From: a virus
Length of the DNA stretch: 34,986 bases
UHGV virus genome: UHGV-0285842
Reading direction: 5' to 3' (one strand)
Part shown: positions 5,816 to 24,440 of the stretch, piece by piece
Numbering within the stretch: position 1 is the first letter of the stretch
How the letters are laid out: every line of letters begins with the position of its first letter
The notes under the pieces: generated by a model
What the model was told of the DNA's origin: nothing
What the model saw: only the letters and a program-made list of their open reading frames with translations
Database searches by the model: none
Made by a program: the position numbers and the translations under genes

Positions 5816-6499
5816 TTAAACGTATTTCATGCGCGATTTAATGTGCTTATTGATGTTTTCAAGCATCATTGCTTCGTTGCTTTCCCACGATCCTAGCGTC
5901 GAATAACGAGTAGAAATTTTATCCGATTTAACGGCAACAATTCGCTTGCTCTGTTTCTGTATGCGTTTCTCTAAGCGACGTTTTGCCACCGCCGATCCAT
6001 TCCTAGCGCGTTTGGTTCGGGATTTCTTAGGCTTGTACTTCTTCATGATAAAAGTCCCTTCCTTGTTCTCTACCTTGATGAAGTTGCCGTTTTCGAGGTT
6101 ACGCATCATCTTACCGCCTTTGATGGCCTTAATGTTCCCGTGGGCGTCTAAGACCTTACCGTTGGCGATTGGAACTAGCTTATTGATTTTGCCCCCATCG
6201 AAATAGTGTTTCAGATAGTCGTCCTGACTGCCGATCTTCTTATCCTTATCCCTTGCGCCCTTGATGAAGATTTGGTGTCTCGTCCCTGATCGGTTCTTGT
6301 AGTTGGTATTACCTACAGCTTGCTGAGTCCAGCGAGTAGGTCTATCAACATTCTTGTTAATCTTCTTCTGGAGTGCTCTGGAAGCAAAGATCGCCCCTTC
6401 CCCTAGTGCCCTTTCGAATGTATCGGTTGCCTTTTCAGACCATTGCCGTAACGCTTTCTTAGTCCTTAGAGCGTTTCGTTTATTGGTACTGGTTGCCAT
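5816..6499 (-). CDS. hypothetical highly basic Lys/Arg-rich protein (227 aa)
   Basis: ORF with AGGGGGCTAAC ribosome-binding site before ATG 6499; strongly basic composition. Confidence 0.55.
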   Translation of the reverse strand: MATSTNKRNALRTKKALRQWSEKATDTFERALGEGAIFASRALQKKINKNVDRPTRWTQQAVGNTNYKNRSGTRHQIFIKGARDKDKKIGSQDDYLKHYFDGGKINKLVPIANGKVLDAHGNIKAIKGGKMMRNLENGNFIKVENKEGTFIMKKYKPKKSRTKRARNGSAVAKRRLEKRIQKQSKRIVAVKSDKISTRYSTLGSWESNEAMMLENINKHIKSRMKYV

Positions 6500-6500
6500 G

Positions 6501-6671
6501 TTAGCCCCCTAATAACGAAAAGACCCCCGCCAGTGTCCTTAGCAATTGTTCATCCACGGTCATAGCCGGGAGTTCAAGCCCAAAGGACGTAAGCAGAGGT
6601 CTAATTGCTACGTTATAAGTGAGGGCGACAATCAAGAGATAACCAAAATATTTCTTAAGTTTATTCTTCAT
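6501..6671 (-). CDS. small single-pass membrane protein (56 aa), lysis-associated candidate
   Basis: Internal ATG 6671 preceded by AAGGGGTGAATAT; hydrophobic segment YFGYLLIVALTYNVAI. Confidence 0.4.
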   Translation of the reverse strand: MKNKLKKYFGYLLIVALTYNVAIRPLLTSFGLELPAMTVDEQLLRTLAGVFSLLGG

Positions 6672-7074: not shown

Positions 7075-10000
7075 TTAAGAAACAGAAATACCAGTAGCGG
7101 CTTTCTTAGTTACCATTACCGTTAGATCGCTGATATATGCACTTGGGTTATAGTTGTTAACGCCCTTACAGTAAACTTCAAAAGTCATTGTTACTGCCCC
7201 GTGTCCGGCTGGCATGTCAATAACTCCACTGTACATACAGCCAGAAGTTGCAGTGCGATCATATAGAACACCACCATTTTTCTTAACGATTAGTCGGCAA
7301 GTATCCCAATGATCGCTACTTTCGCCACGACGAACAGACCCGTTATGATGAATCGCTGGAATCACTATTTGGCGATCGAATGGATGATCATCTTCGACCC
7401 TTACAGTGATTGCACCATCAGGCCAGTTTGGTTGGCGATGTGGGAAACTCCTACCAACCACTTTCACGAAGTCACCACGCACCTGATTAGCATCAAGCAT
7501 ACCCAAAATGCGGCAACTTGAATTAATCGTTACGTTGTTCATTTCGCCGGAATCAGCCACCAAATGACCACGAATATTAGCGTGTCTAAAATGACAAGTG
7601 CCATCTTTGCCGATATACCATCCATCGTTACCATTCCAGTTATAAGACTGGATATAGTTACCAATTTTAGCATTATCGATAGAGCCATCAATGATATGAC
7701 CTGTTCCGATCTGTGCGTGTTGGATGTGAGCGCCGTTAATCTGGGCTGTGCCGATCTTAGCCGTGGTGATACTAGCATCACTAATCTGGGCTGTGCCAAT
7801 TGCAGCATTACGAATCATCGCATTATCAAGATAAACTTTGTTATCTTCGATGCCAAACGGACAAACTTCTGATCCGTCTTGTGGAGCTACCGCGATTTTA
7901 TCAGCCGTAAAGATGATTCTTGTCGGTTCTGCCGGATCATTGGTTGCGCTCATATGAATACCAGCCACGCGACCATCTGCATTAACTGCCAGATTATATT
8001 TGCTGTTAATGGTTCCCTTCAAAGCATCGATTTTTACATCTGCTTCCTGATTCACACCAGCAATCTTGCCATCCATTTCTACCCGAACTTGATCAATCTT
8101 ACTTGCGCTTGCTGCCTCACTGGTAGCAATTGCTTGTTTCAGGGTAGTAGCGGATGCGCTAACTTCTTTGGTGATATCGCCTTTCAGTTCAGCTTTAACC
8201 TGATCAATCTTAGTTGCGCTGGCTTGCTCACTGGTAGCAATCAGACTCTTGAGAGTATCGGCTGAGGCTTGGACCGTCTGCCCTGTCTCGGTAGTAATCT
8301 GTTTATGCATTGCATCAATCTTAGCATCGGCATTAGCGCCAGCTTGAGCAATAGCATCCGCGATGGTTTCATCTAAGCGATCTTGTAAACCAATCAGGTC
8401 TTCCAGTGCTTCTTTGTCCTGATCGTCCCAGCTAATGGTAGATTTCATTTGCATGAAATACGGTTCAGACCAAACAGCATCATCCATGCCGAAAATATCA
8501 TAGTGAGCACCACGGATATAATAATCACCGTCAGCCAAATCAAAGGAAGTATGACTAACGCTATTGGTAGTCACTGCCCTTGCATCGGAGAAAGTATTAT
8601 CGGTTGCATACTGGATGATTGACCCTGCATAGTCATGTTCTACGTCATCCGCCCAGCTAACAAACGCAGTATTAAAGCCACCACGCGCACTAAAACCTTT
8701 CATCGGCTTATGTTGTGGGTTGATAGCCACTAAACGCGCTGGGGCGCTCTCTGAGTTGTTATAGCCCTTGACTGATACTTCTACCGTCAATTCACGGGAA
8801 AGGCCGTTAAACTGGTTCATATCAAGCGTATAAGTCCATGATTCAGGATCGCGGGTACGGTACTGAATAGACTTACCAGCCTTGTTAGTTACCTTGATAA
8901 TGTATGCTTCAAACAGGTCACTAAACTTGTTAGCTTCACCGTTGATCATCACATCTAATTGTTGCTGATTTTCCCATTCGATAATCAGATCATTGCCTTC
9001 GAAAGTACCAGGCGTGCTACCCTGATTTTTGATTCGAATAACCGGAGTCGGCAATTCATAGGTAACAGTAGGATTCTGGTTAACCAGTTCCACCCATTCG
9101 GAACGAGCAATAATACCGAAAGCACAAACGCGGTAATCGTAGGAGCGATCTTTTGCCAGTGCATTGATATTGAAAATTTGCTGTGAAGTCTGCCCCAGCT
9201 TAATCCAGTTAGGCGATCCACTTACACGGTAATCAATCTGGAAACCGTAGCGGTTAAAATCTTCCGGTGCATCCCATGTCAAAGTAACGTTTTTACCGTG
9301 GATTGTCTCACCAGTTGCCTTAATTCTGAAATTAGTAGGCTTCTGTACTGTCATTGAATCCGGTAAACCAGTAGGTCTATTGTCTGGAGTCGCCGCATAG
9401 TTCAGGTCAGTATAAACCTGAGAATTATATTCTGTAGCGGTGATAGTCATCATCCCAGCAATACCAGAATCAATCGAGCGATCAATTGCAGTAATACGCC
9501 ATAAGGAATTATTCAGCTTCAATTCATCATATGTTACGCTGATAACGTCCCAAACTTCGGCAGTGAATGCGTCAGTAGTCATAAAGCTGATAACCTGAGT
9601 GATACGAGATTTATTTCGTTCTACACTCGCTAGTTTATCAATCTGGGCTTTAGACTTAACAAAACGATATTCAATATCTTTAGCGATAATTCGACCATCT
9701 TGACGAATAGTAGCATCGTTTTCAGCATCAGCCGGATAACGTAGCATTTGCTCTGAATAGTCGATTGATGGTTCTTGATACATCGCGTTAATGGTATTGA
9801 AATAACCGTTAGTGCCACCTGTTTTCAGTGATACCTTACCCATCATGATATTGTCTTCATTGAAGGTATGCTTAACAATATCAGGAGCATCCAGTTTCAG
9901 CGTAATACGTCCAAAGGATTCGAACATCACCCCGCCGAAAGTCTGCATAAGGCTAGTTAAGTTCTCTTTAAAGCTGGCGTTCGGATCACATGCACCGTTG

Positions 10001-10821
10001 GAATGTAAATCCATCTGGCGTACTTGTTTACGCACTTTCAGGAATGAATCAACGTTAATATTTTCAATCGGTACACTAAGACCATACTTTGTATTTGTCA
10101 GATAATGGAAAATCTGGTCCACGCCGTTAGTGCTAGCCTCAATAGCATTGGTTTCAAGGTTACGAATCTTTAAGCCCATAACATCGACCGCTACCTGGCT
10201 ATTAGGCTGGAGAATATCAACACCAGCAGCCAAAGATTTGTCATCACGACGTAAAACAATACACATGGTCGCAATGCCGTTACCCTGATACCGATCATCC
10301 CAATCAGCGCCCAAATGATGTTTAGCTAAATCCAATGCAGTGTTAGGATTTTTACCCGTGCGAAACTCGACTTCTAAAACTTTGCGGTATTCGTCTTTAA
10401 TGTTTCCTTTATCGAGAATGCCATCACGAATTGTCATATTCTGGCTAATGAGAACGTTTTTATTATCGATGTGCAGTGCTTTAAAGTGATCGATCTCACC
10501 TTCGGCAATAGCAAAAATTTGTACCAGCTTGTTATTTTCACGCTGTGAAATTGCCTTGTAAACGCAGATTGCACCCGTGCGGGTAGTACCAAAAAGAACG
10601 GGTAATACTGTTTTCGGATCGTTTGATGTTCCTAGTGTCACCGCATTATCTGGGCTTTGTACTTTCGGTGTTTTTGGTGCGCCTACAGTGGAAGCGATCA
10701 AGGTCATTGCACCAGCAGCCATCCCGATAGCGACTGCGGTCATAACAGAAAATGTTGCGGCTGCCGCCATCCCCGCCGAAGCACCAGCGATCACCGCGCC
10801 TACTAATATTTCAAATCCCAT
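7075..10821 (-). CDS. central tail fibre / host-specificity protein, lambda gpJ-like (1248 aa)
   Basis: N-proximal block LVQIFAIAEGEIDHFKALHIDNKNVL resembles the lambda J N-terminus; fibronectin-III-like segment; C-terminal 120 aa (DDHPFDRQIV...MPAGHG...MVTKKAATGISVS) parallels the lambda J receptor-binding end as I recall it. Start overlaps the stop of the upstream gene (TAATG). Confidence 0.85.
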   Translation of the reverse strand: MGFEILVGAVIAGASAGMAAAATFSVMTAVAIGMAAGAMTLIASTVGAPKTPKVQSPDNAVTLGTSNDPKTVLPVLFGTTRTGAICVYKAISQRENNKLVQIFAIAEGEIDHFKALHIDNKNVLISQNMTIRDGILDKGNIKDEYRKVLEVEFRTGKNPNTALDLAKHHLGADWDDRYQGNGIATMCIVLRRDDKSLAAGVDILQPNSQVAVDVMGLKIRNLETNAIEASTNGVDQIFHYLTNTKYGLSVPIENINVDSFLKVRKQVRQMDLHSNGACDPNASFKENLTSLMQTFGGVMFESFGRITLKLDAPDIVKHTFNEDNIMMGKVSLKTGGTNGYFNTINAMYQEPSIDYSEQMLRYPADAENDATIRQDGRIIAKDIEYRFVKSKAQIDKLASVERNKSRITQVISFMTTDAFTAEVWDVISVTYDELKLNNSLWRITAIDRSIDSGIAGMMTITATEYNSQVYTDLNYAATPDNRPTGLPDSMTVQKPTNFRIKATGETIHGKNVTLTWDAPEDFNRYGFQIDYRVSGSPNWIKLGQTSQQIFNINALAKDRSYDYRVCAFGIIARSEWVELVNQNPTVTYELPTPVIRIKNQGSTPGTFEGNDLIIEWENQQQLDVMINGEANKFSDLFEAYIIKVTNKAGKSIQYRTRDPESWTYTLDMNQFNGLSRELTVEVSVKGYNNSESAPARLVAINPQHKPMKGFSARGGFNTAFVSWADDVEHDYAGSIIQYATDNTFSDARAVTTNSVSHTSFDLADGDYYIRGAHYDIFGMDDAVWSEPYFMQMKSTISWDDQDKEALEDLIGLQDRLDETIADAIAQAGANADAKIDAMHKQITTETGQTVQASADTLKSLIATSEQASATKIDQVKAELKGDITKEVSASATTLKQAIATSEAASASKIDQVRVEMDGKIAGVNQEADVKIDALKGTINSKYNLAVNADGRVAGIHMSATNDPAEPTRIIFTADKIAVAPQDGSEVCPFGIEDNKVYLDNAMIRNAAIGTAQISDASITTAKIGTAQINGAHIQHAQIGTGHIIDGSIDNAKIGNYIQSYNWNGNDGWYIGKDGTCHFRHANIRGHLVADSGEMNNVTINSSCRILGMLDANQVRGDFVKVVGRSFPHRQPNWPDGAITVRVEDDHPFDRQIVIPAIHHNGSVRRGESSDHWDTCRLIVKKNGGVLYDRTATSGCMYSGVIDMPAGHGAVTMTFEVYCKGVNNYNPSAYISDLTVMVTKKAATGISVS
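8088..8258. repeat. imperfect ~60-bp direct repeat (period ~111 bp) inside the J-like gene
   Basis: 8088-8148 and 8199-8258 are ~80% identical (both contain GATCAATCTTA...CTCACTGGTAGCAAT), encoding repeated ATSE-AS-KIDQV peptide units. Confidence 0.6.
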
Positions 10822-15720: not shown

Positions 15721-15744
15721 AAAAAAGCCACCCCGAAGGATGGC
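15721..15744 (-). terminator. intrinsic terminator (UUCG-loop hairpin plus U6) after the tail-tube gene
   Basis: Minus-strand RNA reads GCCAUCCUUCGGGGUGGC followed by UUUUUU. Confidence 0.65.
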
Positions 15745-15753
15745 TAGATAATA

Positions 15754-16224
15754 TTAGACTTTCTGGAAAACAGCTTGTTTAACCGGAGCACCATCTACTA
15801 CAAAGGTGAAGGTACGGCCTACTACAGCATCCTCACCACCGGTCATGGTAGTTTTAGACAGGAAGCCGTTATAAGCGATATGTACACCAGATTTTTTCGT
15901 AGCATCGATGTAGTAAGCAATTTTAAGCTGTACGCGCTTACCGTCTTCGGTTGCTTTAATCAGTTTTTCGTGTACTTCGTTACCAGGCATGTAGTTGATC
16001 GAAAGTTCGATATCCGGTACAGACATACGACCAACCAGCTTACGGTTATACGGACCACCGAAGTTAGGAACATCGATAGTAGAACGTTCTACACCAGTTT
16101 CCGGGAAAGCCGCACATTCTGGAATTTCCAGATAGCTTTCACTGTCAAGATCGGTGTTAGTTACTTCTTCATGCAGAAACAGACCAACGAGGCCACCAGA
16201 AAAAATATCAAATTTAGTAGTCAT
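15754..16224 (-). CDS. major tail tube protein (156 aa)
   Basis: Position immediately upstream of the chaperone pair, size and beta-rich composition; AAGGA Shine-Dalgarno; followed by a strong terminator as is common for abundant structural genes. Confidence 0.55.
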   Translation of the reverse strand: MTTKFDIFSGGLVGLFLHEEVTNTDLDSESYLEIPECAAFPETGVERSTIDVPNFGGPYNRKLVGRMSVPDIELSINYMPGNEVHEKLIKATEDGKRVQLKIAYYIDATKKSGVHIAYNGFLSKTTMTGGEDAVVGRTFTFVVDGAPVKQAVFQKV

Positions 16225-16278
16225 TATTCTTTTCCTTCTATTTTAAACAATAGGGCACATACCCGTAATTCTATTTAT

Positions 16279-16581
16279 TTAGCGGTTGCTCAAACGTCTA
16301 TAACGAAGATGAGCGATCCCCCTATTTGTGCTAACGGTAATTACCGCCCCTTGCGGTGCAATACAAGAATGAATCTGTCCCCAATCATGACCCTTATGGC
16401 TTCCAGAAACACACAAACCATGAATAAGCAATTCAGAGTCACCACCGCCACCACCGGAAGAATGAGCACAGAATGAAATAGTCCCGAAAGCGTCGGCTGT
16501 CCAACCGTTAGGAATATCAAACCATCCCTGATTTGCTTTACCCGCCCTATTCCCCAAAGCGCCATCTACCCAAAATGCCAT
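16279..16581 (-). CDS. small Gly-rich protein, paralog 3 of a tandem triplet (100 aa)
   Basis: AGGAGAA Shine-Dalgarno; start overlaps the stop of paralog 2; shares M-x-x-W, FDIPNGW, GL, WG and C-terminal aromatic/basic motifs with the two upstream genes. Confidence 0.6.
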   Translation of the reverse strand: MAFWVDGALGNRAGKANQGWFDIPNGWTADAFGTISFCAHSSGGGGGDSELLIHGLCVSGSHKGHDWGQIHSCIAPQGAVITVSTNRGIAHLRYRRLSNR

Positions 16582-16886
16582 TAGTGCATTCTCCTGAATT
16601 TAAAATAATGCAAACTACCTTTACCCAATGTAAAGCTAACGGTAGCACCAGCGCCAACTAAAGAACTAGCGCCCCAACTCCCAGCATCACCAGCATGATG
16701 ACCTGATTCAATCAATCCATTTACAGCCAATTCAGAATCAAGATCACCAGCACCGTTAATGGCTTCCATATGAGCAAAAACAATTCCGCATGAATCAGTA
16801 ACCCAGCCGTTGGGGATATCAAAATATCCACCATTAGCCCAAATACTAATAGCGTTTGACATTCTTTGATTTATCCATCCAGCCAT
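16581..16886 (-). CDS. small Gly-rich protein, paralog 2 of a tandem triplet (101 aa)
   Basis: GGAG Shine-Dalgarno before ATG 16886; conserved FDIPNGW block. Confidence 0.6.
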   Translation of the reverse strand: MAGWINQRMSNAISIWANGGYFDIPNGWVTDSCGIVFAHMEAINGAGDLDSELAVNGLIESGHHAGDAGSWGASSLVGAGATVSFTLGKGSLHYFKFRRMH

Positions 16887-16888
16887 AA

Positions 16889-17185
16889 TTAAAACTCCAT
16901 GAATTTAAAATATTCAACACCACCTTCACCCCCTAAACCAAAGGAGACGGTGCAGCCAGCAGGAACAAACGAATTTATAGTAGATCCCCAATTGGTCCCA
17001 CCACGACGACGAGCAACGGTCAAACCATCTACGTTAATATGTGCATCAGACCACCCACCACCAGCATTATGACGCATTACAGCGACACCAGCACGAGCAG
17101 TACCATAGCCGTTAGGAATATCAAATACATGCCATTTTAAAGCATCGATTTTAGTATTAATTTCACTACTTACCCAATATCCCAT
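16889..17185 (-). CDS. small Gly-rich protein, paralog 1 of a tandem triplet (98 aa)
   Basis: AAGGA Shine-Dalgarno before ATG 17185; conserved FDIPNGY block. Confidence 0.6.
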   Translation of the reverse strand: MGYWVSSEINTKIDALKWHVFDIPNGYGTARAGVAVMRHNAGGGWSDAHINVDGLTVARRRGGTNWGSTINSFVPAGCTVSFGLGGEGGVEYFKFMEF

Positions 17186-17223
17186 ATAAGAATCCTTAGC
17201 GGAGATTTCTCCCCGCTTTCCAA

Positions 17224-20200
17224 TTACCCTAATTTAGCTTCAATTGCAGCAAGACGTTCACGAAGAAGTTTATTTTCTTCGCTCATTTCTTGGACCGCTT
17301 TAATTAAAAGCGCGTTCACTGCGGAGTTTGAAATTGTTAAAATTTCTTCTGGGTTATCAAGACCACCAATTTTTGCGGTTTTAACAGCTTCCGGTAATAC
17401 CTCTTGTAAATCCTGTGCGATAATACCAATCTCATGACCTATAACTTCTCGGTCATTAAGAGATTTAACTTTATCGTAGGTTTTAACTTTGAGTTTATTT
17501 ACCTTATCCACCGCATTTTCTTCGTAATCTTCAACATTAATTTTCAGACGACCATCGGAACGAATATAAACATCGTTAAAGTTACCATTACCAGGAGAAT
17601 AGAAAGTACCATCATGATGGAACTCGAATACAGCTTGAGGATGACCAGCCGCTGGCGATGCCTCCGCAGATCCAACACGAATAATAGCTTGCCCCCAATT
17701 TTGAGGAACACGACGCATACCAAAATCGACGGCAGTTGTATACCCTTGATTGGTGATTAAACTTCTTCCTTTAATAATTGGATAATAGCTATCTGGTCCA
17801 ACATAGCCATGATCGACGAATATTGGAGCTTCTAATCCCCATTGATCGCCCCAACCTCCAGATTGGCTAGCAGTCCAACGTTCACCATGAACATAGAATC
17901 GAACGTTATTGACATGAGTCATTTCGACACCTTTTGGACTTAGCGCGATATCACCCGCGTTTGTAATATTGATAGCAGCATTAGTAGCATAGCTATAGAA
18001 CGCTAATCCATTATCAGCACCACCTTTACCGATATACCAGTTGTTATTATCAGCACAAGTACCCAGCAAATATATAGACGAATCACCCGTTTCGGCATTC
18101 ATGACGATTGCGTCAGAACCACGATTAACTTTAAGTTTCCCGAAGAAGGTGTTTTTAATGGTATTATCACCCAATCGTTCAAATTCTGCTAAAAATCCTT
18201 TTGAGTCACGAAGACTTAAAACGTTATTTCGACCTGTATTGCTTGCACCCCAATGGACGAGTTCCATATAGTCCATAGATTGACGAGAACCAGCTTTAAA
18301 GAACAGGTTGTCTTCGAGACGAGTGCTACCATCAATTCCAAGATGCAAACAACGAGCAGTTTCAGTGCCACCTAAATATAATCCACCGTCAGCAAAATTA
18401 TAGCTGAATGGTCTACGAGTATTCCACGGTCCAAATGAATCACCGAGATCTGTGGTAAGAATATGGAAGCCAACGCCATCATTTCTAAAAATTAAGCCAT
18501 AATTGCCACCTTTAACAGCCAAACGAGCATTTTCAGATAATGCAACTTCGCTATTCATTACAATTTTCTGGCCTTTACCGCCAGTAATATGCAATTCACC
18601 ATCTTCAATCAGGTTTATAGAGTTTTGACCGTTATCGTTCCACCAAATAAAATCTTTGGTCGTCAAATCACCAAAACCAAACCAACCATTACGAACATCT
18701 TGACCAGTGCGATAATCCATAAAATTAAAATGGCTTGATTCGTTTGGTCCTCGACGAATATCAATACCAGCATTACCAGTACCACCATCCAATGTTAATT
18801 TCTTGATATGTAACCCGGATGTTGCTGTCAGCAATAATTCCTGATTTGTATCTTCGTATCCAGTAGCAAGACGATATGCGTTATCATCAACTGTCTCATG
18901 CCAGATTGTAGCTGGTGCACAACTACGGAAGCGACGCAACATCTTTTTAGCATTTGTCGGTTGTTCGTTTAAATGCTCAATATCATATTGGCCTTGATGA
19001 TTGCCAGCAAAATTTAACGTCCCACGGTTGCTAAAGTTATTGAACGATGAAATGTTAAGAGCATCAAAAATTTCGTCTGCAACAGGTTTTTCACCACCCA
19101 GATATTCAGGAGTATCCAACAGGTTTAAAGAAACACCACCGGAAGAAACTTGATATTCTGCTAAAACAAATCCTGTATGTGCACCGTAGTAAGCGTAAAG
19201 ATCGTAATTGTCGCCATCGGTTGGAATAGCGCAAAAATGTTGTTCATAATGCCAAATAGTATAATACGCATTGAATACAACACCTTTCGGGCTATTGTTG
19301 CCGCATCGAATCACCAATTCGATAATATTGGCTTGTCCATTATGTCCTACGTTATAACCGTTACCACCAACCAAACGGATCTTAGCCGTGCGACCGTGTT
19401 GTTGTGGCATTGTCAAAGTGCCTAGTTTAAACCAACCACCCTCGATACCAAAATTAAGCGTCTTCTGGAACAGTCGGTCAATTTCTGCTTTCGAATATGC
19501 GCCAATTTCAGCCGGAGTAGGTTTATCGCCTTCATGATACATGCGGTGAGAATATGACAAATTACCTAATTCATCATAGCCGTATGTTCTTACAGTAGCA
19601 TGTGGATTAGACCCATAAGTGAACTCGAAGCCACGAGCATGATTAACACCAGATGGATGCGGAACATGCAAGATCATTGCAATATGACCCGCCAGGTCAT
19701 TCATGCGGAATGCACCAAAGTAATCAAGATTACGCGCATTTGGATCATCAAAATAGTTTGCGGTCTTAGACAGCAAATAACCATCAGTATAAGTGTTTAC
19801 GTGTTTTTTGATGTACTTGCCATCAGCAGATCCATCGGCTGCATCAATACGGCTTTCTAAACGTGCCAGTTCAGAATCAGTGTAAGACTTGTTATTGTCA
19901 ACTTTGCTATGAATTGCTGTATTTTTGGCTTCAACATCACGGGTTAATGCTGCGACGTTATCCGCTGCCTCTTGCTTATTGGCTGCAATCACACCAGTAA
20001 GGTTATTGTAGGTGTCAGTTAACTGATTTTCCGCATAGACTTTATTTGCTGCGATAGTGCGGTCAGTTTCTGCCTTAATCAAATCAACCTTGTCATTGAT
20101 TGCTTTGTCATTGCTTGCGATGGTTGCATCGGTGCGGGATTTAATATCATCAACTTTTTTATTGATGCGGGTGTCCAGTTCCTGAGTTGCTACAGCAGCC

Positions 20201-20631
20201 GCATTTTTATTAGCGTTGATGGTATCCGACAATTCAGCTTTAACACCAGCAAGGTCGGAAGCAGCTTTATTTTTATTGGCCTCGATTGTCGCGTCGGTTT
20301 CGCGTTTAATTACATCAACTTTATTGTTAATTTCTGCGTGATTTGCTGCGATGGTTGCATCAGTAGTTTGTTTAATTTCATCTACTTTAGCGTGAATATT
20401 GCGGTCATTTACTGCAATTGTGCTATCTAGTTCTTGTTTGTTAGCATCAACTTTAGATTCTAGTGCCGCGTGAGTTTCAGGAGAAACAGAGATTTGAACT
20501 ACTTCATGATCTCGGTCTTTGGTAAAAATAACATGGTCTTTAAGGTTGATTGCTACCTCACCGACCTGTAATTGTTCCGGCGTTGGTTTTTTGCCAGAAA
20601 CATTAGTTCGTTTAAATTGGATTGATTGCAT
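17224..20631 (-). CDS. side tail fibre (1135 aa) with C-terminal peptidase S74-type intramolecular chaperone domain
   Basis: N-terminal repeated KVDxIKxxTDATIxAN units, central beta-helix-like Gly/Asn-rich region, C-terminal ~110 aa (SDGRLKINVEDY...LLRERLAAIEAKLG) resembling autoproteolytic chaperone domains of phage fibres and endosialidases. GAGGTGA Shine-Dalgarno before ATG 20631. Confidence 0.8.
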   Translation of the reverse strand: MQSIQFKRTNVSGKKPTPEQLQVGEVAINLKDHVIFTKDRDHEVVQISVSPETHAALESKVDANKQELDSTIAVNDRNIHAKVDEIKQTTDATIAANHAEINNKVDVIKRETDATIEANKNKAASDLAGVKAELSDTINANKNAAAVATQELDTRINKKVDDIKSRTDATIASNDKAINDKVDLIKAETDRTIAANKVYAENQLTDTYNNLTGVIAANKQEAADNVAALTRDVEAKNTAIHSKVDNNKSYTDSELARLESRIDAADGSADGKYIKKHVNTYTDGYLLSKTANYFDDPNARNLDYFGAFRMNDLAGHIAMILHVPHPSGVNHARGFEFTYGSNPHATVRTYGYDELGNLSYSHRMYHEGDKPTPAEIGAYSKAEIDRLFQKTLNFGIEGGWFKLGTLTMPQQHGRTAKIRLVGGNGYNVGHNGQANIIELVIRCGNNSPKGVVFNAYYTIWHYEQHFCAIPTDGDNYDLYAYYGAHTGFVLAEYQVSSGGVSLNLLDTPEYLGGEKPVADEIFDALNISSFNNFSNRGTLNFAGNHQGQYDIEHLNEQPTNAKKMLRRFRSCAPATIWHETVDDNAYRLATGYEDTNQELLLTATSGLHIKKLTLDGGTGNAGIDIRRGPNESSHFNFMDYRTGQDVRNGWFGFGDLTTKDFIWWNDNGQNSINLIEDGELHITGGKGQKIVMNSEVALSENARLAVKGGNYGLIFRNDGVGFHILTTDLGDSFGPWNTRRPFSYNFADGGLYLGGTETARCLHLGIDGSTRLEDNLFFKAGSRQSMDYMELVHWGASNTGRNNVLSLRDSKGFLAEFERLGDNTIKNTFFGKLKVNRGSDAIVMNAETGDSSIYLLGTCADNNNWYIGKGGADNGLAFYSYATNAAINITNAGDIALSPKGVEMTHVNNVRFYVHGERWTASQSGGWGDQWGLEAPIFVDHGYVGPDSYYPIIKGRSLITNQGYTTAVDFGMRRVPQNWGQAIIRVGSAEASPAAGHPQAVFEFHHDGTFYSPGNGNFNDVYIRSDGRLKINVEDYEENAVDKVNKLKVKTYDKVKSLNDREVIGHEIGIIAQDLQEVLPEAVKTAKIGGLDNPEEILTISNSAVNALLIKAVQEMSEENKLLRERLAAIEAKLG
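20040..20420. repeat. imperfect tandem repeats (~48 bp units) in the fibre N-terminal shaft
   Basis: Recurring GCGATGGTTGCATC...TTTAAT-TCATC-ACTTT blocks, at least four copies, encoding the repeated KVDxIK-TDATI peptide motif. Confidence 0.5.
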
Positions 20632-20644
20632 CTAATCACCTCAC

Positions 20645-20677
20645 ATAAAACAGGAATAAGGGAGGCGTTAACCTCCC
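20645..20677 (-). terminator. hairpin terminator between the 277-aa gene and the fibre gene
   Basis: Stem GGGAGG (20660-20665) / CCTCCC (20672-20677); U-rich tract on the minus-strand transcript. Confidence 0.45.
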
Positions 20678-20702
20678 CGTCATGTTTTATTTAGAGAAGC
20701 AA

Positions 20703-21536
20703 TCAGTATTCCCCGAAATCGATCCGGTCATGGATAGAAACGGCTTCAATCTCGGCTGGTGTCGGTTTTTCTTCTGTGGAATACAATTTCACCCATCCAG
20801 AATTACCGTCTTTCTGGACTGTGCGAACTCGTAAACGTGGTGCACCAGAAGCGGTGCAAGTTAATTGCCATCCACCATCTTCATTAGGTTGAACGTGAAT
20901 TAGTGAAGTATCAGCACTAAATGGGTTAGATGCGCTCGATCCCTGATAGGTTACGAAACGGTTTCCGGCTAATGCTTCGCTATCAATCGGACCCGTGAAT
21001 GGATTTACACCAGCACCCAAACCAAAATCACCCTGACGTAAGATCCGGCCTTCGGTAGCAATACCGCGATCTAGAATCCCGCCATCAGGTTCTAATTTAA
21101 ACTCGATTGTAGTAACTTTGTTATCACCGGATTTTGTTTTATGTGACGAGACATAAGCGTCAAAAATGACGTAGTAACCTGTGTTAGCAGCACTGTAACC
21201 AGAGTTCACAACATAGAACATACGAAAGCGTAAAGGAGTTTTATCATTCACCGCTTTCATCAACATGTCTTGATGTTCGTCATCCAGAACACGGTTTACT
21301 ACTAACGTAGTTGATTCAAGTTTACGATAGCCAGCAAGTTTACCCGTAGCGTCCTGATCATACTCTTCTAACGTCTGGATCTCTGTGGATTCGGTTATCG
21401 TCGGGAATGCTGCGATGTTCTCGATAGGACTAAATGCAGGATCGAAAAAGTCCGGCTGGTTATCCACCATAGTAGACACGGAGACTTCAACATGCGACCC
21501 CGTGAAAATGTCTAAGTTATCTTGTGTAATATTCAT
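20703..21536 (-). CDS. virion structural protein (277 aa), possibly tail- or fibre-associated
   Basis: AAGGGGTAATA before ATG 21536; beta-rich; C-terminal EEKPTPAEIEAVS echoes KPTPAEIGAYS and KKPTPEQLQVGEVA in the adjacent fibre. Confidence 0.4.
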   Translation of the reverse strand: MNITQDNLDIFTGSHVEVSVSTMVDNQPDFFDPAFSPIENIAAFPTITESTEIQTLEEYDQDATGKLAGYRKLESTTLVVNRVLDDEHQDMLMKAVNDKTPLRFRMFYVVNSGYSAANTGYYVIFDAYVSSHKTKSGDNKVTTIEFKLEPDGGILDRGIATEGRILRQGDFGLGAGVNPFTGPIDSEALAGNRFVTYQGSSASNPFSADTSLIHVQPNEDGGWQLTCTASGAPRLRVRTVQKDGNSGWVKLYSTEEKPTPAEIEAVSIHDRIDFGEY

Positions 21537-22433: not shown

Positions 22434-24440
22434 TCATTCAGCGGAGATGTGAAGAACTTTCAGAGCTTCCGGCTGAACTACGGTGAAGTCCAGGTCTACC
22501 CAGATACGCGGAACGATAGCAGACTGTGCACGGTAGGTAGTGTCATCCATATCCAGTTCCAGACCACCCCATTCGCCGATCATGATACCGGAGAAGTCAC
22601 CCAGAACGATGTGATCTGCCGGGATAACACCAGAAGTAACTACATCGTAACCAGCCAGTTTGCCGTTTTCGATGATATAACCGGAAACGCCGTTATCTTT
22701 CAGGGTAGATTCCAGTTCAGCAGCAGTTGCACCGCTCATTGCAAACTTGATGGACTGTGCCGGAACGCCAGCGTCGGTCAGTGCTGCAATTTCTTTCAGG
22801 AAGTCTTTGTAGCTAAAAGCGGCTTTCTTAGTAACGCGACCACCGTCTACCAGTTGCTTAACCAGACCTTTCGGACCGCGAGTATTGTCTTTGTCAGACA
22901 GAATCAGTTGTTCCAGTTTGATCCGGACAGCTTTGTTAATGTGATCAGTGATCAGAGTAGCAATATTCGGAACAGTTTTCAGAGACTGACGGCTGATCGG
23001 GTTGCCACCAGCAAACGTCTTAGGAGCCATTTTCACGTTTGCAAATTCAGCTTTGCTTTCCGGTGCAGCACCGTTTTCATCAACGAAACCGAAAGCATCT
23101 ACGCTGGAAGCAGTCATTTTCGGTACAGCAATCGGAGCATTCAGACCAGACAGAACAGTCACACCGAGGCGGCCTAAAACACTCTGAGGCAACAGCATTT
23201 CAACATAGGATTCGGTCAGCAGTTTTTCGTCGGTGATATCAGTCAGAGTAGCTTTGGTGTTACCATCAGCAGCAGCACGCAGAGCAGCAGCCGGAACGAA
23301 TACAGAGCCACCGCGAGCAGCACGACCACGCTGCATTGCAGCACCAGCAGCCATAGCGGAATATTCAGCTTCGTTAGCACCCAGAGCAGCACCATCTACC
23401 AGAGAGCGAATTACGTTGTTCAGGTCAAAAGTTTTTTCCATTTTAGAGTCCTTAATTTGTTGTTCGTTGTTACGTTGAGCAGTAGCGATTTTATTTAGTG
23501 CCTTAGTGCGGAATGCTTCCGGCGTCATATCTTTAACTGCCAATGCGCGTTCTAATTCTTCGTCGTTAATATTTAGCTCGCGTGCAATTTCGCGAATTTC
23601 TAATTCGTCTTCTTCGGAACGTTCAGCCACTTCTTCGATTTTTTCTTCTTCAACCGGAGCAGCTTCACGTTCTTCTTTTACTTCTTCTGCTTCCCGAACA
23701 GTTGAACTATCATCATCAACACTTTCAGGATGTTCAGCGTCTTTTCCGTCTTCGAGATTTTCATCTTCTTTATTCTCTTCAACTTGGCGCTCTTGAGTTT
23801 CTTCAACTTCCGGTTCTTTATTTTCTTCTACCGGAGTTTCTTCAACCTGAGCGGCTTCTTGTTCTTCTTTGATTTCTTCGATTTGTTCTTTAGTCATATC
23901 GCGTTTAGCCTCCAAATTAACTGTGATAGTATTTAGAGAGCGATTTAAACCGACAGAATCATCGGCAGGGACCGTCACAAATGAAATTTCAAAAGGTGCC
24001 CACTTAGTAACAATCAATTGCCCTTTGGCGTAATCGATTTGATATTCTTTAATGTCATAACCGACAGAAATTTTTTCCATCGTACCTTCAATGACTTTAT
24101 TGCGAATATCATTAGCCATAGTTCCATGCTTAGAGAATTTAACCAGAGCACGACCTACGTTATCCGCATCGATTCGAGCGTTACAAACGACACCAATGTG
24201 ATTATCGAAATTATGATTAAACAGCAACGGAGCGTTATTATTCAGACGAGACAGATCAACCGCTTCCGGTGTATGTACCAGAATTTCATCTAATACCACC
24301 ATTTCTTGATTTTGCTCATCCCAGAATTGGCGCTGATAAGGCTGTTCACTGGAGAAAGCAATTTCAAATTCGTATTGATCGTTCTGCCCTTCGTTAATAA
24401 CTCCACCGTAACCGTTAAGATCGCGGCGAAATTTAAGCAT
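22434..24440 (-). CDS. fused prohead protease (HK97 gp4 / S78-like), acidic scaffold segment and HK97-fold major capsid protein (668 aa)
   Basis: N-terminal ~170 aa with protease-like pattern (EFEIAFSS...LLFNHNFDNHIGVV...ISVGYDIKEY), central Glu/Lys coiled-coil low-complexity region, C-terminal ~330 aa capsid-like (SGVIPADHIVLGDFSGIMIGEWGGLELD...). AAGGTGA before ATG 24440. Confidence 0.75.
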   Translation of the reverse strand: MLKFRRDLNGYGGVINEGQNDQYEFEIAFSSEQPYQRQFWDEQNQEMVVLDEILVHTPEAVDLSRLNNNAPLLFNHNFDNHIGVVCNARIDADNVGRALVKFSKHGTMANDIRNKVIEGTMEKISVGYDIKEYQIDYAKGQLIVTKWAPFEISFVTVPADDSVGLNRSLNTITVNLEAKRDMTKEQIEEIKEEQEAAQVEETPVEENKEPEVEETQERQVEENKEDENLEDGKDAEHPESVDDDSSTVREAEEVKEEREAAPVEEEKIEEVAERSEEDELEIREIARELNINDEELERALAVKDMTPEAFRTKALNKIATAQRNNEQQIKDSKMEKTFDLNNVIRSLVDGAALGANEAEYSAMAAGAAMQRGRAARGGSVFVPAAALRAAADGNTKATLTDITDEKLLTESYVEMLLPQSVLGRLGVTVLSGLNAPIAVPKMTASSVDAFGFVDENGAAPESKAEFANVKMAPKTFAGGNPISRQSLKTVPNIATLITDHINKAVRIKLEQLILSDKDNTRGPKGLVKQLVDGGRVTKKAAFSYKDFLKEIAALTDAGVPAQSIKFAMSGATAAELESTLKDNGVSGYIIENGKLAGYDVVTSGVIPADHIVLGDFSGIMIGEWGGLELDMDDTTYRAQSAIVPRIWVDLDFTVVQPEALKVLHISAE

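Follow-up and report, generated by a model that had tools for sequence, protein, structure and literature searches.

Prediction and engineering of the host range of T-even-like phages assume a fibre tip made by gp37 alone (T4 type) or by gp37 together with gp38 (T2 type). The S74 domain of gp37 is self-cleaving, and in RB49 and most T-even-like phages one gp38 monomer attaches once this chaperone has been removed (PMC9569957). A fibre of three different chains is described for the virophage DSLV2 and related Synechococcus phages, in which three consecutive paralogs form a 1:1:1 heterotrimeric receptor-binding fibre according to co-purification and modelling (PMC12724248). The viral genome UHGV-0285842, of which a stretch of 34,986 nucleotides is analysed here (hereafter the window), possesses three small paralogous genes, c1, c2 and c3, located behind a fibre gene that ends in a Peptidase_S74 chaperone. 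This three-gene cassette is probably a fibre-tip module of a new kind, and would be a third, unannotated tip arrangement beside the two that are commonly assumed. Our best explanation, tentative and just short of an even call, is a 1:1:1 heterotrimeric knob of the c1, c2 and c3 proteins that is added in trans to the fibre end after its processing. The proposal draws on the genomic slot of the cassette, the chaperone encoded upstream, the knob-like predicted fold, the coupling of three genes, complementary charges between the paralogs and the lack of cassette-fibre fusions.

The three cassette genes

All three genes are located on the minus strand: c1 at 17185..16889 (98 amino acids, C-terminus ...FKFMEF), c2 at 16886..16581 (101 amino acids, C-terminus ...FKFRRMH) and c3 at 16581..16279 (100 amino acids, C-terminus ...YRRLSNR), the third paralog being the best conserved of the trio. 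The c1 stop codon TAA is followed by 2 nucleotides and then by the ATG of c2, and the stop of c2 overlaps the start of c3 in the sequence TAATG. A Shine-Dalgarno motif is present upstream of each start (AAGGA for c1, GGAG for c2 and AGGAG for c3), that of c2 lying within the final c1 codons (ATG GAG TTT TAA). Pairwise BLASTP comparisons among the three proteins yield E-values of 1.8e-12, 6.2e-9 and 9.4e-15, so that their paralogy is beyond chance. An earlier reading of the window, made from the sequence only, had described three tandem, translationally coupled paralogs that encode glycine-rich proteins of about 100 amino acids, and this description holds, with glycine making up 16-17% of the residues. 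The shared motifs listed in that reading recur in the three-way alignment, which contains 19 invariant columns including M1, W4, F21-D-I-P-N-G26, G54-L55 and W66-G67. They do not extend to the wider family, where only I23, P24, G33, G54 and G77 are near-invariant, and the position of the 'WG' motif in c2 is offset relative to c1 and c3.

The proteins have no family match in Pfam, PHROGs, NCBIfam or PADLOC, with the exception of a lone sub-threshold Pfam match of c3 to an unrelated beta-barrel family (none for c1 and c2), and the family profile retrieves nothing from the sequences of the PDB, in line with the first impression of an unrecognised family. A word-indexed search of 5.8 billion proteins returns 35 clusters, all of them 'hypothetical proteins' of ~100-130 amino acids from E. 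coli, Shigella and Salmonella, and an exhaustive search with a hidden Markov model (HMM) of 1.84 billion representative proteins returns only ~15 true clusters, again all small proteins. No cassette domain naturally fused to a fibre occurs among these 1.84 billion representatives. Four large proteins from the HMM search (P0046, P0052, P0053 and P0054) are taken as spurious; three of the four are repeat proteins (ankyrin, NHL or others), and P0054 possesses a single short matching stretch and no Pfam domain. Scanning genome contigs with the family profile gives 47 pattern matches and zero true relatives, and a metagenome scan with the family alignment A2 gives only four true loci besides a spurious one (L037, 3543-5672). 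The latter encodes a 709-amino-acid metagenomic protein with the string HVFDIPNGYGT, equal to c1 residues 19-29, which is taken as a chance match, as the search pattern itself selected for that motif. Neither the family nor its genes were found described in the literature on Krischvirus, gp38, gp37 chaperones and C1q-like or heterotrimeric tail fibres.

The slot behind the fibre gene

The cassette and the 3' end of the fibre gene are 97% identical to the T4-like Krischvirus G37-3, the shared stretch starting inside gp37 and ending 16 nucleotides past the c3 stop codon (window position 16263). In Krischvirus the slot is laid out as gp37, either c1-c2-c3 or gp38, an open reading frame (ORF) of 79 amino acids and the holin gene, and G37-3, G2248 and UPWr_E1 carry the trio between gp37 and the conserved 79-amino-acid ORF plus holin gene. 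The Krischvirus MIZ4 and the Tequatrovirus DalCa possess the adhesin gene gp38 after gp37, in the slot occupied elsewhere by the cassette (PMC12032242). The corresponding slot of the prophages, between fibre gene and tail tube gene, contains the cassette (PK8568 and 21 further genomes), a T2/PP01-type gp38, or nothing (DEC5A). The gp38 variant, which matches PDB 9V85 at E 6e-135, is restricted to two out of 5426 complete E. coli genomes, ETEC4085 (L005, 5555-6337) and NZ_LS992166. A leftover 3' piece of c3 is present beside gp38 in both of these prophages, which shows that the cassette was replaced on the spot by a gp38 module.

The gp38 protein of the T2/T6/RB49/S16/PP01 type (PDB 6F45 chain D, 9V85) resembles the cassette in being encoded directly after a gp37-type gene with an S74 end, and the two replace each other in Krischvirus as well as in this prophage family. 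However, gp38 is a single monomer of 260 amino acids that attaches through its N-terminal domain and bears hypervariable segments in a polyglycine sandwich, whereas the cassette encodes three proteins of ~100 amino acids, predicted jelly rolls without hypervariable segments. Homology of the shared cassette N-terminus (M-x-x-W-I ... W) to the gp38 attachment domain (VPGWIGSS...W) was considered and rejected, as hhalign returns a probability of 0.4% over 9 aligned columns when the family alignment A2 is compared with three gp38 sequences (A3).

The replacement by gp38 in the slot and the invariant synteny with S74 fibres strongly back a role linked to the fibre, as the sequence-only reading had assumed. 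A function unrelated to the fibre, such as late anti-defence, exclusion or a lysis-associated activity, with the cassette merely travelling with the fibre through a recombination hot spot, is very unlikely and the least probable reading considered here. It would agree with the fact that the cassette of myovirus and podovirus genomes adjoins the holin gene and with the dispensability of the cassette in the Krischvirus KFS-EC (see below). In the prophages, however, the cassette is located between fibre and tail tube genes and far from the lysis genes, and hence follows the fibre and not the holin. The S74-fibre synteny is invariant over three genome architectures, and the gene that takes the place of the cassette encodes an adhesin. 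Furthermore, the cassette proteins match no PADLOC defence model at E up to 1, and no hydrophobic segment fit for a signal peptide or a membrane helix was found in c1, c2 or c3.

The upstream fibre and its distal tips

The fibre gene (17224..20631, minus strand) encodes 1135 amino acids with the Pfam domains Gp34_trimer, gp37_trimer and Peptidase_S74, the last one matching fibre residues 1025-1084 at E 5e-14. The intramolecular chaperone at the C-terminus (residues 1026-1135) corresponds to positions 17224..17556 (minus strand). It is expected to cut itself off behind Ser1025, within the motif DVYIRS/DGRLK (cut at the slash), a site placed by analogy with known S74 domains such as those of endosialidase and T5 pb1. 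With the S74 match upstream and tail-tube families downstream, the cassette lies where the sequence-only reading had put it, between a chaperone-containing fibre and the tail tube gene. The fibre is a mosaic, its first ~287 residues forming a prophage-specific coiled coil and the part from residue ~288 being T-even gp37-like. Residues ~288-1135 are 82-97% identical at the nucleotide level to gp37 genes of lytic T4-like Krischvirus, and this near-identity suggests that a temperate siphovirus and lytic myoviruses exchanged fibre sequence very recently.

In all loci that include sequence upstream of the cassette, the preceding gene ends in an S74 chaperone with the motif R-S-D-x-R-L-K. This includes the remote T7-like contig L031, in which a fibre with a Phage_T7_tail N-terminus and an S74 domain is followed by c1-c2-c3 and then by a class II holin; the unit of S74-terminated fibre, c1, c2 and c3 is found in siphovirus, myovirus and podovirus genomes.

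Distal tips were compared across loci as the 130 residues preceding the cleavage site. The tip of the window fibre is of the T2/RB49 type (...FEFHHDGTFYSPGNGNFNDVYIRS; ...FEFHHDGTFYSPGNGNFN directly before DVYIRS) and is 96-97% identical to the gp38-followed tips of ETEC4085 and MIZ4. In the window this T2-type tip continues into the variant of the chaperone that is linked to the cassette. Most cassette loci share an uncharacterised distal domain, termed type B (...WGR..MDVH.PG...), which occurs in E. coli, Salmonella, T7-like and other remote lineages with 38-100% identity to the PK8568 tip. For type B tips there is no Pfam family and no solved homologue, and the sequence search matched the chaperone part alone (S16 gp37). 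Examples of the domain are present in L007 (6225-9755, minus strand; fibre residues ~900-1066), L001, L010-L012 and L030-L033. A third fibre end is found in G2248 (L002, 6947-9991, minus strand), L003 and L023; it consists of a T2-like tip with an extra domain of ~100 residues and a divergent S74 chaperone, and is paired with a ~80%-identical cassette allele.

The hybrid of T2-type tip and cassette is limited to six near-identical loci, i.e. the window, L013, L014, L019, L035 and KFS-EC. Two of them have a damaged cassette: in L014, a prophage from IMG/VR, c2 is truncated to 73 amino acids (6300-6521), and in KFS-EC the cassette is degenerate, with c1 residues 1 to ~89 joined out of register to distal c3 (L004, 5015-5444). 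L035 (1425-2331) contains a recombinant cassette with c1 of one allele and c2/c3 of the other. As the damage falls in the hybrid group while 17 of 17 type B loci are intact, a comparison between phylogenetically non-independent loci, the distribution is suggestive of a cassette cognate to type B tips and of the window as a recent, possibly mismatched recombinant. A simple lock-and-key relation is opposed by the shuffling of cassette alleles and tip subtypes, which occurs also within type B, and by the recombinant cassette of L035.

Predicted structure and similar folds

AlphaFold models of the cassette proteins (predicted local distance difference test, pLDDT, 82 and 88) suggest a compact jelly roll of the C1q/TNF-like kind, a fold shared by the knobs of trimeric fibres; the c3 model reaches a pLDDT of 87.7 and a predicted template modelling score (pTM) of 0.73. 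The models are globular beta sandwiches of ~80 residues with a short N-terminal helix. Top Foldseek matches of c3 in the PDB are lymphotoxin-alpha, cerebellins, C1QL1-3 and the NC1 domains of collagen X/VIII. C1q/TNF trimers, which include the heterotrimeric C1q head (chains A, B and C) and the collagen VIII/X NC1 domains, differ from the cassette proteins in possessing 10 strands instead of 7-8; sequence identity is 5-15%, and neither the Pfam family C1q (PF00386) nor TNF (PF00229) is matched.

The best viral matches (TMq 0.6-0.7) are C1q/TNF-like distal knobs fused to phage tail fibres among the BFVD models, e.g. of Edwardsiella MSW-3 and eiAU, Acinetobacter Acj61 and Achromobacter Motura, with BclA-type and Bdellovibrio fibre tips as examples from the PDB. 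These knobs are the distal, host-facing ends of trimeric fibres. They form the C-terminal domain of the fibre chain and, being part of that chain, are presumably homotrimeric; the cassette proteins, in contrast, are free-standing, exist in three diverged versions and accompany a fibre with a cleavable chaperone.

Distribution, copy number and selection

Member count and order were determined by running the family HMM on all 37 fetched loci. Every intact locus contains exactly three family genes in the order c1-c2-c3, and the copy-number variation for which a survey of related phages had been suggested is absent among them. The cassette occurs in eight divergent lineages, comprising E. coli and Salmonella prophages, Krischvirus and metagenomic contigs (one of them T7-like). 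Intact three-gene loci also span IMG/VR contigs and four remote metagenomic lineages, in which the position in the locus predicts the orthogroup of 11 out of 12 proteins. Members are 39-100% identical within orthologue groups versus 20-43% across groups, and the tight coupling and gene spacing are conserved across loci. The conservation of the three orthogroups and their order implies that the three-way split predates every known lineage, which agrees with the old triplication proposed earlier. The cassette is rare: among 50,697 phage records 3 contain it, and among 5426 complete E. coli genomes 22 do (~0.4%), in all of which it is annotated as three hypothetical genes. Cultured phages with the cassette are the Krischvirus members G37-3, G2248 and UPWr_E1.

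The ratio of nonsynonymous to synonymous substitution rates (dN/dS) is 0.04-0.35 overall for the three genes (orthologues at dS 0.08 to ~2), with 0.05-0.22 for c2 and 0.08-0.29 for c3, and this purifying selection identifies c1, c2 and c3 as expressed protein genes. Hypervariable segments are absent from all three proteins, in which the variability is evenly spread. The diversifying selection assumed by the sequence-only reading is supported by neither result. Loop variability is slightly higher at the presumed distal end of the sandwich than at the end with both termini (1.31 vs 0.91 bits, one-sided p = 0.03, with the loop polarity taken from strand order and not from coordinates). Residues K17, R31, I50, A72 and E97 are specific to the c1 orthogroup; as R31/E97 of c1 and D30/R97 of c2/c3 are complementary in charge, they suggest contacts between the paralogs.

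These data bear on the possibility that each paralog forms its own homotrimeric tip, so that three alternative distal adaptors would provide three receptor specificities, as proposed earlier. C1q/TNF-like folds are usually homotrimeric, each of the proteins is a complete domain, and the cassette occupies an adhesin slot, all of which would suit such tips. Independent alternative tips are, however, expected to be gained and lost, whereas the copy number is never 1, 2 or 4 in intact loci of the eight lineages and the order is fixed. Purifying selection and low variability, above all of c3, and the charge-complementary orthogroup residues, which suggest inter-paralog contact, are equally unfavourable to it. 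Three separate specificities are thus doubtful, and homotrimeric tips improbable; constant copy number together with translational coupling fits one obligate three-component unit better. The earlier interpretation is partly supported overall.

Proposed assembly of the fibre tip

In the assembly proposed for the heterotrimeric knob, the fibre would trimerise and its chaperone would cut itself off after Ser1025, while the trio would be made in equal amounts through translational coupling. The c1, c2 and c3 proteins would assemble 1:1:1 into a knob of pseudo-threefold symmetry, which would dock on the newly exposed fibre end via the short N-terminal helices and a conserved base formed by the FDIPNGW loop and the C-terminal tails. 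The knob would stay in place as distal, host-facing tip, a role close in place and presumed timing to that of monomeric gp38 on T2-type fibres. The usual partner of the cassette is the type B domain; its location behind a T2-type tip in the window most likely goes back to a recent recombination, and the pairing may be non-cognate there. A knob encoded past the chaperone in the same chain would be cleaved off, hence the need for a separate gene, and supply in trans would make sense of the lacking cassette-fibre fusions. From these features we infer hetero-oligomerisation of the trio, its presence in the virion, its docking site and its binding of a receptor.

DSLV2 shares with the cassette the three consecutive paralogous genes and is a precedent for the proposed stoichiometry; its proteins, however, are elongated and gp37-needle-like (~58 kDa in total), without small jelly rolls and without a separate S74-processed fibre. 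In a more specific form of the proposal, which is possible though rather doubtful, an asymmetric C1q-like heterotrimeric cap recognises the new C-terminus created by S74 autocleavage and is portable across myo-, sipho- and podoviruses. If true, trimeric fibres would have two independent ways to acquire a receptor-binding tip encoded in trans, monomeric gp38 and the cap. The cap would then be the first fibre knob of a tailed phage to be built as a jelly-roll heterotrimer, and would offer a new module for the engineering of host range. A heterotrimeric tip would also show how a fibre with a discarded C-terminus still gains a distal knob, by means of a compact module of ~900 bp that is already moving among lytic myoviruses, temperate siphoviruses and T7-like podoviruses.

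Several observations weigh against the heterotrimeric knob. Most S74 fibres occur without a cassette, including that of the sister prophage DEC5A, which has the same tip type. The lytic O157 Krischvirus KFS-EC is viable with a degenerate cassette, a T2-type gp37 tip and no gp38, which indicates that the trio is dispensable at least on the hosts of this phage. Unrelated fibre tips are accompanied by one and the same cassette allele (99.9% identical), and this shuffling of alleles and tips suggests the fibre tip, and not the trio, as the main determinant of specificity. The hypervariable loops typical of adhesins are absent and dN/dS is low. Moreover, the fold likeness is at the level of topology only (Foldseek E 4e-3 and weaker), the domain, with ~80 residues, is shorter than a true C1q/TNF domain (130-150 residues), and carbohydrate-binding modules are matched just as well.

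Much of this evidence bears on the main rival of the knob, a non-structural assembly or maturation factor for S74 fibres, especially for those with the type B tip, that aids folding, trimerisation or chaperone release and is absent from the finished virion. T4 gp38 and gp57A act as such non-virion factors of fibre assembly, T2 gp38 is required both in adhesion and in the assembly of the fibre, and some tail-fibre assembly chaperones remain bound to the fibre tip. Purifying selection without hypervariable loops would be in keeping with such a factor, and so would the link of the cassette to the constant S74 region while the upstream tip varies, its dispensability or decay in KFS-EC and L014, the sister prophage DEC5A without cassette, and the double role of T2-type gp38. 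The known fibre assembly chaperones (T4 gp38, gp57A and the Tfa proteins of lambda, Mu and P2) are, like the cassette proteins, small and encoded right after the fibre gene; their fold, however, is not the one predicted for the cassette proteins, a jelly-roll knob that matches distal fibre domains, and the fibre preceding the cassette already has a built-in chaperone. S74 chaperones let fibres fold unaided, as in endosialidase and T5 pb1, and most S74 fibres manage without a cassette. The families Caudo_TAP/Tfa, T4 gp38 and gp57A yield no match in Pfam, PHROGs or NCBIfam, and a helper would hardly be expected to consist of three different subunits with coupled stoichiometry. An assembly factor is unlikely on balance; if the trio did act in this way, it would represent a new class of helpers for self-chaperoned fibres.

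Genomic setting of the window

The window covers nearly all of a temperate siphovirus prophage from E. coli, with genes for a serine recombinase, an M15 endolysin, a J-like tip protein, tape measure, tail tube, a protease-capsid fusion, portal and large terminase. The capsid gene (22434-24440, minus strand) encodes an S78 prohead protease fused to the major capsid protein, 668 amino acids in total. Relatives of the prophage are present in 57 of 5426 complete E. coli genomes, and the rest of window positions 1-25000 has no phage match in the collection at megablast sensitivity. The tail tube gene (15754..16224, minus strand, 156 amino acids; lambda-type Pfam and PHROG tail-tube matches) is located directly downstream of the cassette and is followed by an intrinsic-terminator-like site at 15745..15726, detected by a terminator scan. 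Fibre gene and cassette are flanked by the head-tail joining genes on one side and by the tail tube gene on the other (15754-21536), and do not follow the J-like tip gene (7075-10821), an unusual placement that is kept in the relatives from E. coli and Salmonella. Several related prophages (e.g. L022, 2948-4156) contain insertion sequence (IS) elements (ISVsa5, IS421 and the IS3 family) within the tail gene region, so that some of these copies are probably defective. An ORF of 233 amino acids on the plus strand (15775-16476), antisense to the tail tube gene and c3, is most likely spurious.

A GC-rich hairpin with an 8-bp stem (17199..17218, minus strand) separates the stop codon of the fibre gene from the Shine-Dalgarno motif of c1; it lacks a T-run and has an RNA folding energy of -14.7 kcal/mol (z = -2.4). 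A hairpin at the equivalent intergenic site of phage G2248 is annotated as a putative terminator, and the element in the window could affect transcript stability or act in attenuation.

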